Source of the DNA: Escherichia phage PhiV-1
Sequence record: MT542512
DNA length: 39,461 nucleotides
Strand: one strand, 5' to 3'
The notes beneath the pieces were generated by a model that was not told where the DNA came from, made no database searches, and worked only from the letters and a program-made list of their open reading frames with translations. This document shows, in pieces, positions 2,982 to 39,461 of this stretch (its first letter is position 1; each line of letters opens with the position of its first letter). Both the position numbers and the translations under genes were made by a program.

Positions 2982-5633
2982 ATGACTAACGTAATCAACG
3001 CACCAAAGAACGACTTCTCTGACATCGCTAACGCAATCCAGCCGTACAACATTCTGGCTGACCATTACGGCGCACAGCTTGCAGCTACGCAGTTACAGCT
3101 TGAGCACGAAGCACACACCGAGGGCGAGAAGCGTTTTCTTAAGGCAATGGAACGTCAAATCAAAGCGGGTGAGTTCGGTGATAACGCAGTGGCTAAACCG
3201 CTCCTGTCATCTCTCGCACCGAAGTTCATCGAGGCGTGGAACACTTGGTTCACCGAGGTGGAAGCGAAGCGTGGCAAGCGTCCAGTAGCCTACAATCTGG
3301 TACAGAAGGTTGCACCTGAAGCGGCCGCTTTCATCACACTGAAGGTCACACTCGCTTGCTTGACGAAAGAAGAGTTCACCAACCTGCAATCGGTCGCCAC
3401 TAAGATTGGTCGCAGTATTGAGGATGAACTGCGTTTTGGTCGCATCCGTGACGAAGAAGCGAAGCACTTTAAGAACCACGTACAGGAGGCACTGAACAAG
3501 CGCGTTGGTATCGTCTACAAGAAAGCATTCATGCAAGCCGTAGAAGGCAAGATGTTAGACGCTGGTCAACTGCAAACCAAGTGGACTACATGGACACCTG
3601 AAGAATCAATTCACGTTGGTGTGCGCATGTTGGAACTGCTCATCGGGTCTACTGGTCTCGTTGAGTTACACCGACCGTTTGCTGGTAACGTTGAGAAGGA
3701 TGGCGAGTACATCCAGTTAACAGAACAATATGTAGACCTGCTATCCAAACGTGCTGGCGCACTGGCTGCAATCGCTCCGATGTATCAGCCTTGCGTGGTC
3801 CCTCCGAAGCCTTGGACTTCTCCGGTTGGTGGTGGCTATTGGGCTGCTGGTCGCAAGCCTCTCTCTCTGGTTCGCACTGGTAGCAAGAAGGGACTTGAGC
3901 GTTACAACGATGTGTATATGCCTGAAGTCTACAAGGCGGTGAACATCGCACAGAATACTCCTTGGAAGATTAACAAGAAGGTTCTGGCAGTGGTCAACGA
4001 GATTGTGAACTGGAAGCATTGCCCGGTTGAAGATGTTCCTGCTCTGGAACGTGGTGAACTGCCTGTCAAACCTGATGACATTGACACCAACGAGGCATCG
4101 CTCAAAGCGTGGAAGAAAGCGGCCTCCGCAATCTACCGCAAAGAGAAGGCACGAGTGTCTCGTCGTATGAGCATGGAGTTCATGTTAGGTCAGGCCAATA
4201 AGTTCGCACAGTTTAAAGCTATCTGGTTCCCGATGAACATGGACTGGCGCGGCCGAGTGTATGCGGTCCCAATGTTTAACCCGCAAGGCAACGACATGAC
4301 CAAAGGCTTGCTGACGCTCGCTAAAGGTAAACCAATCGGTGTCGATGGGTACTACTGGCTGAAGATTCACGGTGCTAACACTGCTGGTGTGGACAAGGTG
4401 GACTTCGCTGAACGCATCAAGTTCATTGATGACAACCACGAGAACATCATGAGCGTTGCGGCTGACCCGATTGCTAACACTTGGTGGGCTGAACAAGACT
4501 CTCCGTTCTGCTTCCTCGCGTTCTGCTTTGAGTATGCGGGAGTCCAGCATCACGGGATGAACTACAACTGCTCTTTACCGCTGGCGTTCGATGGCTCTTG
4601 CTCTGGTATTCAGCACTTCTCCGCAATGCTCCGCGATGAGGTCGGTGGTCGTGCGGTTAACCTGCTTCCAAGCAAAGAGGTACAAGACATCTACCGCATC
4701 GTTGCTGAACGTGTGAACGAGATTATGCAACAGGACGTAATCAACGGAACTGATAACGAAGTGGAAACTGTTATCAACAAGGACACTGGAGAAATCACTG
4801 AGAAGCTCAAGCTGGGTACGAAGGAACTGGCGGGTCAATGGTTGGCCTACGGTGTGACTCGCAAGGTCACTAAGCGTTCGGTCATGACGTTGGCTTACGG
4901 CTCCAAAGAGTATGGCTTCCGTGACCAAGTTCTTGAGGACACAATTCAGCCAGCTATCGACGATGGCAAGGGCTTGATGTTCACTCAACCGAACCAAGCG
5001 GCTGGCTACATGGCTAAACTGATTTGGAATGCTGTAACGGTCACAGTTGTCGCAGCGGTTGAAGCGATGAACTGGTTGAAGTCTGCTGCTAAACTTCTGG
5101 CTGCTGAAGTCAAGGACAAGAAGACCAAAGAGGTTCTCCGCAAGCGTTGCGCAGTACATTGGGTAACTCCTGATGGCTTCCCTGTGTGGCAGGAATACAA
5201 GAAGCCAGTACAGACCCGCTTGAATCTGATGTTCTTAGGCCAGATTCGTCTACAGCCTACCGTGAACACCAACAAGGATAGCGGGATTGATGCTCGTAAA
5301 CAGGAGTCAGGCATCGCACCTAACTTTGTCCACTCAATGGATGGAAGCCACCTGCGCATGACCGTGGTTCGCTCCAATGAGGTCTACGGTGTGGAATCGT
5401 TCGCACTGATTCACGACTCCTTTGGTACTATCCCTGCTGATGCTGGCAACCTGTTTAAAGCAGTGCGTGAAACGATGGTCAACACTTACGAAGAGAACGA
5501 TGTACTTGCAGACTTCTATGAGCAATTTGCTGACCAGTTGCACGAATCACAGCTTGACAAGATGCCTGAGATGCCAGCTAAAGGTTCTCTGGACCTGCAA
5601 GAAATCCTTAAGTCAGACTTTGCGTTTGCCTAA
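2982..5633 (+). CDS. 1: Single-subunit DNA-dependent RNA polymerase
   Basis: 883 aa; co-linear with T7 RNAP as recalled; motifs LAFDGSCSGIQH and HDSFGT; specificity loop R746/N748/R756/Q758 identical to T7. Confidence 0.98.
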   Translation: MTNVINAPKNDFSDIANAIQPYNILADHYGAQLAATQLQLEHEAHTEGEKRFLKAMERQIKAGEFGDNAVAKPLLSSLAPKFIEAWNTWFTEVEAKRGKRPVAYNLVQKVAPEAAAFITLKVTLACLTKEEFTNLQSVATKIGRSIEDELRFGRIRDEEAKHFKNHVQEALNKRVGIVYKKAFMQAVEGKMLDAGQLQTKWTTWTPEESIHVGVRMLELLIGSTGLVELHRPFAGNVEKDGEYIQLTEQYVDLLSKRAGALAAIAPMYQPCVVPPKPWTSPVGGGYWAAGRKPLSLVRTGSKKGLERYNDVYMPEVYKAVNIAQNTPWKINKKVLAVVNEIVNWKHCPVEDVPALERGELPVKPDDIDTNEASLKAWKKAASAIYRKEKARVSRRMSMEFMLGQANKFAQFKAIWFPMNMDWRGRVYAVPMFNPQGNDMTKGLLTLAKGKPIGVDGYYWLKIHGANTAGVDKVDFAERIKFIDDNHENIMSVAADPIANTWWAEQDSPFCFLAFCFEYAGVQHHGMNYNCSLPLAFDGSCSGIQHFSAMLRDEVGGRAVNLLPSKEVQDIYRIVAERVNEIMQQDVINGTDNEVETVINKDTGEITEKLKLGTKELAGQWLAYGVTRKVTKRSVMTLAYGSKEYGFRDQVLEDTIQPAIDDGKGLMFTQPNQAAGYMAKLIWNAVTVTVVAAVEAMNWLKSAAKLLAAEVKDKKTKEVLRKRCAVHWVTPDGFPVWQEYKKPVQTRLNLMFLGQIRLQPTVNTNKDSGIDARKQESGIAPNFVHSMDGSHLRMTVVRSNEVYGVESFALIHDSFGTIPADAGNLFKAVRETMVNTYEENDVLADFYEQFADQLHESQLDKMPEMPAKGSLDLQEILKSDFAFA

Positions 5634-5640
5634 CGGAATC

Positions 5641-5663
5641 TAATACGACTCACTAGTGGGAGA
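5641..5663 (+). promoter_or_regulatory. Phage RNAP promoter (phi1.1A position)
   Basis: TAATACGACTCACTAGTGGGAGA followed by AT-rich ctttaag x3 region. Confidence 0.7.
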
Positions 5664-5723
5664 CCCTTGGGGTTTCCCTACTTTAAGATAACTTTAAGTT
5701 TAACTTTAAGAGGAAACATAATC

Positions 5724-6281
5724 ATGTTTACTTTCATCACTTCAGTAGGCGCTCTCGTATCAACAATTCTTGCAGCAACATACTATAATCGTTCAAAGGT
5801 ATTTCTCACTAAGCTAATCAAAGAAGAGAAGAACTCTCATGCACTCAAAGAGAGACTTGAAGATGGATGGCGAGAGAAGCAGGAACTAGCTGGTCGAATC
5901 CGTACCTTAGAGTTCGAACAACAATACGACATGTCGAACCAACGAGAACTCATTGAGCGTCTACGCGCTGAGGCAGTGGAGTACCGCAAGGAACTTAAAG
6001 AGGCAAAGAGTACCATCCGTGAGTACACTCACAGTGACATCACGTCTATCAAGTTTACCGCTCACATCCCGGATGCTGGGTGGAAGCGCACTGAGTTCAA
6101 GCTGGGTATAGGGTCTTGTGGCAAAGAGGTTACATGTTTGCACTGGAAAGAACAGTCGGACCGCTATCTGCTGACACAGACGTGCACTGACGGTGAGCGC
6201 AAAGAGTTCACCTATTATAAGAAAGATGTAGCTGGTCGCATTGAGATTGCACGTAAGGTTGCAGACAATACGACTCACTAA
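5724..6281 (+). CDS. Hypothetical membrane-anchored coiled-coil protein (T3 gene 1.05 position)
   Basis: 185 aa from ATG 5724 with RBS gagga and tttaactttaag enhancer; the track ORF start at 5667 lies inside the promoter; N-terminal TM helix, central coiled coil, Cys-containing C-terminus. Confidence 0.6.
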   Translation: MFTFITSVGALVSTILAATYYNRSKVFLTKLIKEEKNSHALKERLEDGWREKQELAGRIRTLEFEQQYDMSNQRELIERLRAEAVEYRKELKEAKSTIREYTHSDITSIKFTAHIPDAGWKRTEFKLGIGSCGKEVTCLHWKEQSDRYLLTQTCTDGERKEFTYYKKDVAGRIEIARKVADNTTH

Positions 6282-6288
6282 TGGGAAA
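6266..6288 (+). promoter_or_regulatory. Phage RNAP promoter (phi1.1B position)
   Basis: CAATACGACTCACTAATGGGAAA; overlaps stop codon of upstream ORF. Confidence 0.7.
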
Positions 6289-6296
6289 CACTGAAA

Positions 6297-6340
6297 GTTA
6301 AACTCAAGGTCATCACTGCATGGTGGCCTTCATGATTAAC
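6297..6340 (+). promoter_or_regulatory. RNase III-type processing hairpin (R1.1 position)
   Basis: gttaaactcaaggtcatca / tggtggccttcatgattaac; 10-bp stem with G-U wobbles. Confidence 0.55.
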
Positions 6341-6372
6341 TGTCAACGATACTACCAAGAGGAAACAACATT

Positions 6373-6522
6373 ATGCGTACCAACTTTGAACCAACCACTA
6401 AGCGCAACAACGTAATCAACGAACACGGTGCTGAATGGCAGGAACGTAAAGACCGCATGAAGAAACGCCACAAGACACAACGTGGCAACGCTGAGAAACG
6501 TAACTGGAAGGAGGCACTCTAA
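6373..6522 (+). CDS. 1.1: Small basic protein gp1.1
   Basis: 49 aa (below track threshold); MRTNFEPTTKRNN... resembles recalled T7 gp1.1; stop overlaps 1.2 start. Confidence 0.6.
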   Translation: MRTNFEPTTKRNNVINEHGAEWQERKDRMKKRHKTQRGNAEKRNWKEAL

Positions 6523-6794
6523 TGGGTCGCTTATATAGTGGTAACTTAATGGCGTTAAAGGATGTCATCGAGAGACTTAAAGAAGACCACGATGTCAGTG
6601 TTGTAACTGAGACTTTCCGCTATGAGAACTACGCACAGCGCCGATGGGTCTCCGGTGAGACTCTCCGCATTGTTCTACGCAATGGCCTCGTACTGACATC
6701 CAAGTGTTTCGAACAGTCAGACGAAGATGTCCGGTGCAATGCACAGACTGAGTGGCTCCGCAAGGTACACGCAGACCTGAAGCACTGGAAGTAA
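6522..6794 (+). CDS. 1.2: Inhibitor of host dGTP triphosphohydrolase
   Basis: 90 aa; MGRLYSGNL... N-terminus and DEDV...W...DLKHWK C-terminus as in T7 gp1.2. Confidence 0.8.
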   Translation: MGRLYSGNLMALKDVIERLKEDHDVSVVTETFRYENYAQRRWVSGETLRIVLRNGLVLTSKCFEQSDEDVRCNAQTEWLRKVHADLKHWK

Positions 6795-18023: not shown

Positions 18024-18046
18024 CAATACGACTCACTATGGGAGAG
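18024..18046 (+). promoter_or_regulatory. Phage RNAP promoter (phi6.5 position)
   Basis: CAATACGACTCACTATGGGAGAG. Confidence 0.65.
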
Positions 18047-18099
18047 GGGTGCCTATATGATACCTACTTTAAGTTCTAACTTTAAGGAGAACATCTATT

Positions 18100-18345
18100 A
18101 TGTTAACCCCTATCAAGAAATACATGGAGAACCCACAAGATATTCCTAGCGTTCCACGTAGTGTTATGGAGTATTTACAGGTTCAATATAATGCTGGATA
18201 TGCCTTGCAGTCTGGTTTAGTTAACCGATTGAAACAGGCTGGTTGGTCTGAAAGCTACATTGCTGGGTTCCTCGCGGGTCTCAACTATGCGTCTCAAACC
18301 TTAGACGACATGGAGGCAATCCGTAAGGAACAGGCTGAGTCCTAA
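18100..18345 (+). CDS. 6.5: gp6.5-like protein
   Basis: 81 aa; preceded by ctaactttaaggaga leader. Confidence 0.7.
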   Translation: MLTPIKKYMENPQDIPSVPRSVMEYLQVQYNAGYALQSGLVNRLKQAGWSESYIAGFLAGLNYASQTLDDMEAIRKEQAES

Positions 18346-18647: not shown

Positions 18648-18962
18648 ATGGGTTGGGGTAAAAAGATTCGAAAATCAGTTAAGAAGGCTGTCAAGAAAGT
18701 AACCAAGCCTATCGAGAAGGTAGTCAAGGAAACTGGCAAGGCAGTTGAGAAGGTTGGTAAGGAAGCTGGGAAAGTAGTTGGTGGTGTTGCTGGTACTGTT
18801 CAAGCTGCACCTCCTGCTGCACAGATTATTGAGCCACCGAGTAAAGACGATGTAGACTCCGATGATGATGCACAGACTGAATCCGGTAAGAAGAAAGCCC
18901 GTGCTGGCGGTAAGAAATCTCTGAGTGTCGCTCGCAGTTCTGGCGGTGGTCTGAATATCTAA
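18648..18962 (+). CDS. 7.3: gp7.3 tail-associated/host-range protein
   Basis: 104 aa; AQTESGKKKARAGGKKSLSVARSSGGG.NI C-terminus as in T7 gp7.3. Confidence 0.85.
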   Translation: MGWGKKIRKSVKKAVKKVTKPIEKVVKETGKAVEKVGKEAGKVVGGVAGTVQAAPPAAQIIEPPSKDDVDSDDDAQTESGKKKARAGGKKSLSVARSSGGGLNI

Positions 18963-20659: not shown

Positions 20660-21571
20660 ATGGCTGGTGAATCTAACGCTGACGTATACGCATCTTTCGG
20701 TGTGAACTCTGCGGTTGTTGGTGGGTCTACTCATACTGAACACGAACAGGCTATGCTTGAACTCGATGTTTCTGCCCGTGATGGCGATGATGCAATCGAG
20801 CTAGTTAGCAACGATGACCCTTATGGCAATCCAGACCCATTCGGTGAAGAGGATGAGAGTCGTACTGAGATTCGCATCTCCACTGATGGTGAACCTGAAG
20901 TAACCGAAGAAGGTGAAATCGACTATGAAGGAACCGAAGATGAAGGCTCCGAAGAGTTTGAACCAGTTGGTGACGTTCCAGATGAACTGAACGAAGCCTC
21001 AAGTCAACTCGAAGAGCACGAAGCTGGTTTCGAAGAGATGGTCAATCAGGCGGCTGAACGTGGTCTGTCAGAAGAAACCATCGTGCGTATCCAACAGGAA
21101 TACGGAGAGGACGGTCTGTCTGAAGAGTCTTACGAAGAGTTAGCCAAAGCTGGTTACTCCAAGTCGTTTGTTGACTCCTACATCCGTGGTCAGGAAGCAC
21201 TGGTAGAACAGTATGTTCAGTCCGTTATGGAATACGCTGGCGGTGAAGCACAGTTCCAAGCAATCTACAATCATCTCGAAGTGTCCAACCCGGATGCTGC
21301 TGAGTCTCTGATTAGTGCCTTGGAGAACCGTGACCTCGCAACAGTTAAGGCTATCGTCAATCTCGCTGGTGCAAGCCGTGCTAAGACTTTCGGTAAGCCT
21401 GCTGCCCGTAGTATCTCTAAACGTGCCGTACCTGCTGCACCTGTACGCACCAAACAGTCTGGCTTTGAGTCACAGGCTGAGATGATTGCTGCAATGTCCG
21501 ACCCTCGCTATCGCCACGACAGTAAGTTCCGTGCGGAAGTTGAGCGCAAGATGATGTACAGTCAGTTCTAA
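20660..21571 (+). CDS. 9: Capsid assembly (scaffolding) protein
   Basis: 303 aa, acidic; matches recalled T7 gp9. Confidence 0.95.
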   Translation: MAGESNADVYASFGVNSAVVGGSTHTEHEQAMLELDVSARDGDDAIELVSNDDPYGNPDPFGEEDESRTEIRISTDGEPEVTEEGEIDYEGTEDEGSEEFEPVGDVPDELNEASSQLEEHEAGFEEMVNQAAERGLSEETIVRIQQEYGEDGLSEESYEELAKAGYSKSFVDSYIRGQEALVEQYVQSVMEYAGGEAQFQAIYNHLEVSNPDAAESLISALENRDLATVKAIVNLAGASRAKTFGKPAARSISKRAVPAAPVRTKQSGFESQAEMIAAMSDPRYRHDSKFRAEVERKMMYSQF

Positions 21572-38868: not shown

Positions 38869-39024
38869 GGCACCCTAAGACAACTTAAAGACACTTAAAG
38901 ACTGCATATGCAAAGTGCATACTTAGTGACTACTCTTAGAGACCCTTACAGTGAGGTATGATGGTAATAGTAATTACATCCCTACTATCAGTGTAACCAT
39001 CAAGTATAACAAGGAGGACGCTCT

Positions 39025-39348: not shown

Positions 39349-39381
39349 CCTTATGATAGCCACTCTGTGGTGAACCTTATG
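39349..39381. repeat. Right-end CCTTATG repeat copies
   Basis: ccttatga at 39349 and 39375, same heptamer as left-end array. Confidence 0.45.
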
Positions 39382-39429: not shown

Positions 39430-39461
39430 TCTCATAGTTCATACAAAGTGTTTCCCCCCCC
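39430..39461. repeat. Probable physical left genome terminus / start of terminal repeat (TCTCATAGTTCA...)
   Basis: tctcatagttcatacaaagtgtttcccccccc resembles the conserved T7/T3 genome 5' terminus. Confidence 0.45.

Follow-up and report, generated by a model that had tools for sequence, protein, structure and literature searches.

Organization of the locus

The window analysed here is the whole 39,461-nucleotide stretch (39.5 kb) of Escherichia phage PhiV-1 (sequence record MT542512). It is assigned to Berlinvirus (a T7-group podovirus), with ~93% identity to 285P and CarlSpitteler, and the best matches to its first 25 kb show ~93% identity as well. RNA polymerase, DNA polymerase and DNA primase/helicase are features that lie under the 93%-identical matches, so a T7-type replisome is encoded. 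The element under study lies at 5.68 of 39.46 kb, corresponding to 14.4% of the genome, just to the right of gene 1. The 1.2 kb flanking it show 93-96% identity to ErnstBeyeler, 285P, BA14, P483 and Kvp1. The window contains ~13 phage promoters. The features of the locus, together with one replication gene further to the right, are the following.

2982-5633, + strand: gene 1, the RNA polymerase gene, from the list of open reading frames
5641-5663, + strand: phage RNA polymerase promoter phi1.05, TAATACGACTCACTAGTGGGAGA, with one mismatch to the window consensus and zero matches expected by chance
5658-5678, + strand: GC-rich hairpin of 9 bp at +1, GGGAGACCC-UUG-GGGUUUCCC, at the predicted 5' end of the transcript (MFE structure)
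5680-5711, + strand: three ACTTTAAG units with cores at 5680-5687, 5691-5698 and 5703-5710 and a period of 11-12 bp
5681-5730: 50-bp duplex with the lowest stability in the window, as calculated from nearest-neighbour free energies (rank 1, z = 4.09), with a GC content of 22%
5699-5707, + strand: TTAACTTTA, formed by the last unit and identical to the 'epsilon' translational enhancer of T7 gene 10
5708-5714, + strand: AAGAGGA, the Shine-Dalgarno (SD) sequence of gene 1.05, which shares bases with the last repeat unit
5724-6281, + strand: gene 1.05 (185 aa), with its ATG at 5724 and its start as in BA14 and Kvp1
6266-6288, + strand: promoter phi1.1, a consensus match, followed by an R1.1-type RNase III hairpin region at ~6290-6345
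9123 (start): gp2.5-like ORF

The first-pass annotation had called the promoter past gene 1 phi1.1A-type. Its conventional name is phi1.05, as used in the annotations of BA14, Kvp1, K11 and T3, and in BA14 and Kvp1 phi1.05 is annotated at the corresponding place. By analogy with T7 promoters, transcription from phi1.05 is expected to start at 5658. The stem of the +1 hairpin is nearly identical to that of the T7 phi10 leader hairpin. A strong +1 hairpin precedes the array in every lineage compared, and the hairpin sequence differs by lineage.

The ORF that follows had been described as inserted; it turns out to be gene 1.05, which is common in the group and is annotated in BA14, Kvp1, K11 and T3. 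The relative without gene 1.05 is T7, and the ORF is thus not an insertion peculiar to PhiV-1. The gene 1.05 product matches only PHROG families of unknown function, and its C-terminal part shows 47% identity to T3 gp1.05. Coding use of 5667-5723, through a TTG-initiated extension of this ORF, was rejected because the 10-13-nt indels among relatives are not multiples of three and the annotated starts agree on the ATG.

Gene 1.05 runs into the next promoter, phi1.1, which covers its last codons and stop (6279-6281), an overlap also present in T3 and BA14. The R1.1-type assignment of the hairpin region is based on sequence similarity to the R1.1 sites of T7 and T3. Downstream of phi1.1 the DNA is ~40% GC and has no AT-rich tract. 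Initiation downstream of this second promoter (6266-6288) appears less likely than initiation after phi1.05, since an R1.1-type hairpin and ~40% GC DNA are found there and not an AT-rich tract.

The window ends show some features of their own. A run of eight C is present at both ends (1-8 and 39454-39461). No second copy of the left-end sequence occurs at the right end; apparently, the window therefore contains the direct terminal repeat only once, which may reflect an assembly collapse or an arbitrary cut. CCTTATG occurs seven times at 78-283 near the left end, with an irregular spacing of 11-63 bp, and twice near the right end (39349-39381); these copies resemble the T7 short-repeat arrays beside the terminal repeats. 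ATCTGT at 174-179 resembles the pause signal for T7 RNA polymerase at the concatemer junction.

The CTTTAAG array

The string ctactttaagataactttaagtttaactttaag is located at 5678-5710 and includes exact CTTTAAG copies at 5681-5687, 5692-5698 and 5704-5710, which are spaced by 11 and 12 bp and lie 23-52 nt downstream of the start site at 5658. Tandem Repeats Finder reports the array at 5680-5711 with a period of ~12 and 2.8 copies. The first-pass annotation had noticed three ctttaag repeats in AT-rich DNA directly past the promoter, and the exact copies starting at 5681, 5692 and 5704 agree with this. It had also presented the whole interval 5664-5723 as AT-rich, which is correct for the array tract and incorrect for 5664-5678, where the 15 nt form the GC-rich 3' half of the +1 hairpin. 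The AT-rich tract continues to ~5740, into the first codons of gene 1.05, and the GC content of 5680-5739 is 23%.

The CTTTAAG 7-mer is present in 27 copies on both strands of the window, compared with 4.5 expected. The tandem arrangement is rarer than this over-representation itself. With a cluster defined by the relaxed motif CTT[AT]?AAG and a gap of <=16 bp, the window contains four tandem clusters compared with 0.07 in shuffles that roughly preserve the dinucleotide content, and a 3-copy cluster appears in 0 of the 300 shuffles. Tandem repeats also occur within coding regions, with 33 bp x 2 at 18714-18780 (79% match) and 15 bp x 4 at 20896-20955 (64% match), and these probably encode repeated peptide segments.

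A scan of 5400-6600 against Rfam gave no match at E <= 1, and a scan for sigma-70 promoters and terminators gave none within the array. The idea that the array units are -35-like elements, which came from reading the T7 A1 promoter sequence TTGACTTAAAGTCTAAC, was dropped since the sigma-70 scan found none in the array. An iteron-type origin, in which direct repeats of ~17-22 bp are accompanied by a Rep initiator encoded nearby, was also rejected: the units here are 8-bp cores with variable spacers of 2-5 bp, their copy number is unstable among close relatives, and the adjoining gene 1.05, whose only matches are PHROG families of unknown function, is absent from relatives that keep the array. 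Replication in the T7 group needs no Rep initiator.

The leader of gene 1.05

The suggestion that the same stretch doubles as the leader of the ORF is upheld by the Shine-Dalgarno sequence AAGAGGA and the ATG at 5724, in agreement with the gene 1.05 start of BA14 and Kvp1. A leader function of the stretch for gene 1.05 is as good as certain. The layout is that of gene 10: the epsilon motif, as defined in PMC12923837, lies upstream of the SD and adjoins it, and a start codon and an unstructured leader are present. In the predicted fold, the last unit and the SD region are largely unpaired.

We compared this leader with that of T7 gene 10 (g10-L) behind promoter phi10. Both consist of a promoter, a GGGAGACC...GGUUUCCC hairpin at +1, an AU-rich tract with the epsilon motif, an SD and an ATG. 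However, g10-L has one unit, whereas the window has three in tandem, and g10-L serves the major capsid gene, whereas the window leader serves a small class II gene. In several well-expressed genes, namely 2.5, 6.5 and 13 of the window and 6.5, 9, 10 and 17 of T7, a single ACTT(T/A)AAG unit stands directly before the SD.

Duplex stability and other origin signals

The least stable duplex of the window coincides with the array and the start of gene 1.05, and we compared its rank with the ranks of promoter-associated tracts in four other genomes. The ranks among the least stable 50-mers of each genome are as follows.

Window: phi1.05 1, phi6.5 2, phiOL 4, phiOR 9
T7: phiOL 1, mapped primary origin 2, phi6.5 3, phiOR 5
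T3: annotated origin 1, phiOL 2, phi6.5 3
BA14: phi1.05 1, phi6.5 2, phiOL 3
K11: phiOR 1, phi6.5 2, phiOL 3, phi1.05 8

Used to detect origins, this ranking performs sensibly and recovers the T7 and T3 origins. Other signals are less helpful. Primase recognition sites, (G/T)(G/T)GTC, occur around the element at the background density of ~11 per kb. On the minus strand, a GGGTC site at 5666 is located within the hairpin and not within the array, while T7 and T3 each have one site inside the tract; at ~11 sites per kb genome-wide, the site at 5666 carries no weight. GC/AT skew was rejected as an origin marker. The cumulative minimum in T7 falls near 1.1 kb, whereas the origin is at 5.9 kb, so that cumulative skew misses the origin even in T7 and is uninformative for the window.

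Comparison with the T7 and T3 origins

The best characterized origin in the group is that of T7, where replication begins from 10-60-nt transcripts at phi1.1A/1.1B (14.75-15% of the genome length) (PMC8373140; bioRxiv 10.1101/2024.10.01.616023). Secondary origins, e.g. phiOR and phi6.5, are used when the primary origin is deleted (PMC8373140). The T7 sequence past phi1.1B, ggagaaCCTTAAGgtttaaCTTTAAGacCCTTAAGtgttaattagagatttaaattaaag, contains three CTT(W)AAG units with a spacing of 10-12 bp and opens the AT-rich tract. These units form the single tandem CTT(W)AAG cluster of the whole T7 genome (5930, 5942 and 5952) and are located at the start of the AT-rich region of the mapped primary origin. 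When the window is compared with this region, the three-unit array and the 12-mer TTTAACTTTAAG (window 5699-5710) are common to both, and the distal 40 bp of the T7 tract are not; TTTAACTTTAAG also occurs in the T7 gene-10 leader.

The two loci share a rightward phage RNA polymerase promoter after gene 1 and an AT-rich tract within ~10-25 nt of the start site, and both tracts are among the least stable duplexes of their own genome. The arrangement of the surrounding elements differs. In T7, the R1.1 RNase III site separates two tandem promoters, the second of which is followed by the tract, whereas the window has one promoter, and its R1.1-type hairpin lies past the next promoter, phi1.1, with gene 1.05 intervening. 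The T7 tract is also longer and ends ~15 nt before gene 1.1, whereas the window tract is ~50 bp and runs into gene 1.05. The T7 origin has been mapped experimentally, whereas the PhiV-1 element is known from sequence.

The match in gene order is closer for T3 and phiYeO3-12. The RefSeq records of both carry a rep_origin annotation directly past phi1.05 (NC_003298, 5682-5758, for T3 and NC_001271, 5995-6136, for phiYeO3-12). As in the window, the order is gene 1, phi1.05, an AT-rich tract with CTTTAAG units, gene 1.05, phi1.1, R1.1 and gene 1.1. The tract overlaps the leader and the start of gene 1.05, and in T3 it is the least stable 50-mer of the genome. However, the T3 tract continues for ~40 nt within the coding sequence of gene 1.05, where two of its units lie, and the promoter specificity is T3-type. 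The window gp1.05 is twice the length of T3 gp1.05, with homology in the C-terminal part only. T3 has two clusters past phi1.05, of which the one at 5737/5749 is wholly inside the annotated origin and the one at 5668/5682 straddles its left edge. The sole 3-copy cluster of K11 lies past phi1.05 as well. No origin annotation was present at the homologous element in the Berlinvirus records examined, a literature search for experimental mapping of a T3 or Berlinvirus origin found none, and no origin is mentioned in the paper on the Kvp1 genome.

Conservation of the array among relatives

The sample for this comparison consisted of 80 loci encoding relatives of the polymerase C-terminus, which represent 75 distinct sequences. 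A tandem cluster is present within 200 nt of the gene 1 stop in 68 of the 75 distinct relatives, in arrays of 2-5 units. Three copies are found in 58 of the 75, across four genera that use different unit variants: ACTTTAAG is the unit of Berlinvirus, T7-like and T3-like phages, and ACTTAAAG is that of the K11-like Klebsiella phages. The largest copy number seen is that of a Berlinvirus relative, L015 (IMGVR_UViG_2700988866_000001, 2598-2720), with four exact ACTTTAAG units and one ACTCTAAG.

The locus is mosaic, and either unrelated 1.05 variants or gene 1.1 directly follow the array. The array is kept without gene 1.05 in L008, L010, L011, L014, L015, L063 and L073; in L010 and L015, gene 1.1 stands directly past arrays of four and five units, respectively. 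This retention without gene 1.05 ties the array to the promoter and the position and not to that gene. Genes 1.05 and 1.1 have the same 11-mer, AAGAGGAAACA, as their ribosome-binding sites (5708-5718 and 6357-6367, respectively). Recombination between the two copies seems to have produced the relatives L010, L011 and L008, in which gene 1.05 is absent.

In three K11-like relatives (L048, L065 and L072), promoter phi1.05, the array and gene 1.05 are all missing, and recombination between promoters phi1.05 and phi1.1 seems to have given rise to these sequences. An array past gene 1 is also absent from K1F and gh-1. These absences show that the array is a feature of the T7/T3/Berlin/K11 clade and is dispensable. 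This dispensability matches the tolerance of T7 to deletion of its primary origin.

Arrays downstream of other promoters

The remaining three tandem clusters of the window are also located downstream of phage promoters.

487-517, + strand: three AACTTAAAG units with a period of 11, 48 nt past the phiOL start site (441); stability rank 4
18066-18086, + strand: two ACTTTAAG units in the phi6.5 leader (18041-18102), start site 18041; stability rank 2
38877-38902, + strand: two ACTTAAAG units with a period of 10, 21 nt past the phiOR start site (38863)

As clusters of the relaxed motif, these three span 489-517, 18067-18086 and 38884-38900. All four clusters thus lie 21-48 nt downstream of the start sites of 4 of the 13 phage promoters, and by a rough estimate the 100-nt windows downstream of promoters cover ~3% of the genome. 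T3, BA14 and K11 show a similar pattern of promoter-downstream arrays. The arrays at phiOL and phiOR have no adjoining gene start, so the arrays are not only translational signals. A degenerate CCCTAAG accompanies the two phiOR units. The phiOL array ends just before a TTGACT that resembles the -35 element of the first host promoter, and its third unit with the flank (ACTTAAAGTCTAAC) matches the -35 region of T7 promoter A1 given above.

The phiOR region of T7 is implicated in secondary-origin and packaging functions. T7 phiOL, phi6.5 and phiOR each combine a promoter with very AT-rich DNA that follows it, as do their window counterparts, which in addition carry ACTT(T/A)AAG arrays. In T7, by contrast, phiOR has no array, and phiOL and phi6.5 have single exact copies only. 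The T7 secondary origins also differ from a primary site in that their use depends on deletion of the primary origin (PMC8373140). T7 phiOR functions as an origin (PMC8373140), and since it works without an array, AT-richness rather than the motif probably matters. The common denominator of T7-group origins is thus a promoter followed by very AT-rich DNA, and the motif is probably not essential.

Interpretation of the element

The first-pass annotation had proposed the stretch as a candidate primary replication origin, and the sequence-level tests that we ran (promoter, position, melting and partial T7/T3 homology) support it in that capacity, as a candidate only. We favour, with moderate confidence, the reading in which the stretch forms the AT-rich half of a transcription-primed origin of the T7 type and doubles as the leader of gene 1.05. 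Because it matches the mapped T7 origin in position and in part of its sequence, it is probably the main origin of PhiV-1; we infer from homology with T7 both that replication initiates at the element and that the element is the primary site. The origin and leader functions are compatible. Such an element is an expected feature of the T7 group and not a new type; its homologue has been mapped in T7, and T3 and phiYeO3-12 carry it as an annotation. Several findings count against the origin reading: the tract is only ~50 bp and is without the second half of the T7 AT-rich region, the corresponding K11 tract is only eighth in instability, the element is dispensable, as the K11-like relatives without it and the array-less K1F and gh-1 indicate, and primase sites near it do not exceed the background density. 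In addition, the combination of a promoter, a +1 hairpin, an AU-rich CTTTAAG tract and an SD is also found in ordinary strong leaders (T7 phi10/gene 10, phi9 and phi17; window phi2.5 and phi13), so translation alone could explain it.

On the favoured reading, the transcription-primed origin would work as follows. The phage RNA polymerase would start at 5658, transcribe rightward and, within the first few tens of nucleotides, enter the most easily melted DNA (5681-5730), which would serve as the zone of unwinding and primer handover. The phage DNA polymerase would then take the 3' end of the short nascent transcript as a primer for rightward synthesis. Loading of the gp4 helicase-primase on the displaced strand may help the DNA polymerase to take over, and primase sites on that strand would subsequently start leftward synthesis. 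Transcripts that are not captured would act as mRNA, with the 5' end protected by the +1 hairpin and translation of gp1.05 driven by the unstructured AU-rich tract, the epsilon motif and the Shine-Dalgarno sequence.

Conversion of an RNA polymerase transcript into a leading-strand primer is shared with ColE1 plasmids and mitochondrial DNA. Unlike those systems, the window has neither a defined site of RNase H processing nor a G-rich element that forms a hybrid, the region being AU-rich, and the phage helicase and polymerase would take part directly in the handover. Plasmids with a T7 origin need the loss of RNase H (PMC8373140; PMC5997990), which points to an RNA-DNA hybrid intermediate.

The most serious competitor is that the element is nothing but a strong 5' UTR of gene 1.05, with a stabilising hairpin, an AU-rich landing pad for the ribosome, epsilon-like units and an SD, and that replication starts mainly elsewhere. 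We regard this as unlikely, though the leader evidence is substantial: an exact epsilon motif adjoins the SD, the layout and the stem are almost those of the T7 phi10/gene-10 leader, and single ACTT(T/A)AAG units precede the SDs of several window and T7 genes, the AAG of the unit being the 5' part of an extended SD. Moreover, the array ends at an SD in every relative, whichever gene comes next. A leader role by itself, however, does not account for the arrays past phiOL and phiOR, where no gene start adjoins, or for the T7 array, which lies ~50-75 nt upstream of the gene 1.1 start and inside the mapped origin; and three copies together with the genome-wide minimum of duplex stability exceed what other strong leaders show. 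The repeats could also be a by-product of evolution, the scar of slippage or illegitimate recombination between near-identical leader cassettes at a hot spot for gene gain and loss, in which only the last, SD-proximal unit is functional. The locus is highly mosaic, the copy number ranges from 2 to 5, and the AAGAGGAAACA sequence at the 1.05 and 1.1 ribosome-binding sites would generate natural 1.05 deletions such as L010 and others. Nevertheless, such a scar is very improbable in view of the three copies kept in 58 of the 75 distinct relatives, in four genera and with different unit variants, the independent arrays at phiOL and phiOR, and the coincidence of the site with the mapped T7 origin.

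A further reading assigns the function to the motif. The ACTT(T/A)AAG units, about one helical turn apart, would serve to bind or phase some factor of the phage or the host, or to load the replisome, which we consider quite unlikely, and it is equally doubtful that the motif, rather than AT-richness, is the functional determinant that marks phiOL, phi1.05, phi6.5 and phiOR as 'replication promoters'. The distribution of the four tandem clusters, all of them 21-48 nt downstream of 4 of 13 promoters within ~3% of the genome, the recurrence of the arrangement in T3, BA14 and K11, and the use of one variant per array (central T or A) at a period of 10-13 bp are in line with such a signal. In its most explicit form, phased arrays would be the specific signal of the four replication promoters in the T7/T3/Berlin/K11 clade and would convert a transcribing polymerase into a primer donor; we give this version little credence as well. 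If it were true, some factor of phage or host origin would recognise the arrays as DNA or nascent RNA, or else the arrays would force a particular geometry on the DNA; either way, they would define origins by sequence and not by AT-richness alone. Against this, T7 phiOR is a working origin without an array and T7 phiOL and phi6.5 have single exact copies (PMC8373140 for phiOR), and even close relatives differ freely in copy number (2-5) and spacing, as slippage would give. The overlap of the unit with the extended SD explains much of its recurrence. We also know of no candidate binding protein for the array.

In summary, the transcription-primed origin that doubles as a leader is the reading that we prefer for the stretch past phi1.05. 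The transcription-primed mechanism was established in T7 decades ago, and an origin of this kind in PhiV-1 changes nothing in principle. If the reading is correct, it places the main replication start of a Berlinvirus-type phage, which would be useful for annotation and would guide both phage engineering, by indicating where not to insert or delete, and the construction of phage-dependent replicating plasmids. A tandem CTT(W)AAG array lies past the post-gene-1 promoter in T7, T3, BA14 and K11, and in the two of these that have a mapped or annotated origin (T7 and T3) the origin and the array coincide. The post-gene-1 array is therefore a possible marker, which could help to annotate origins in the clade.
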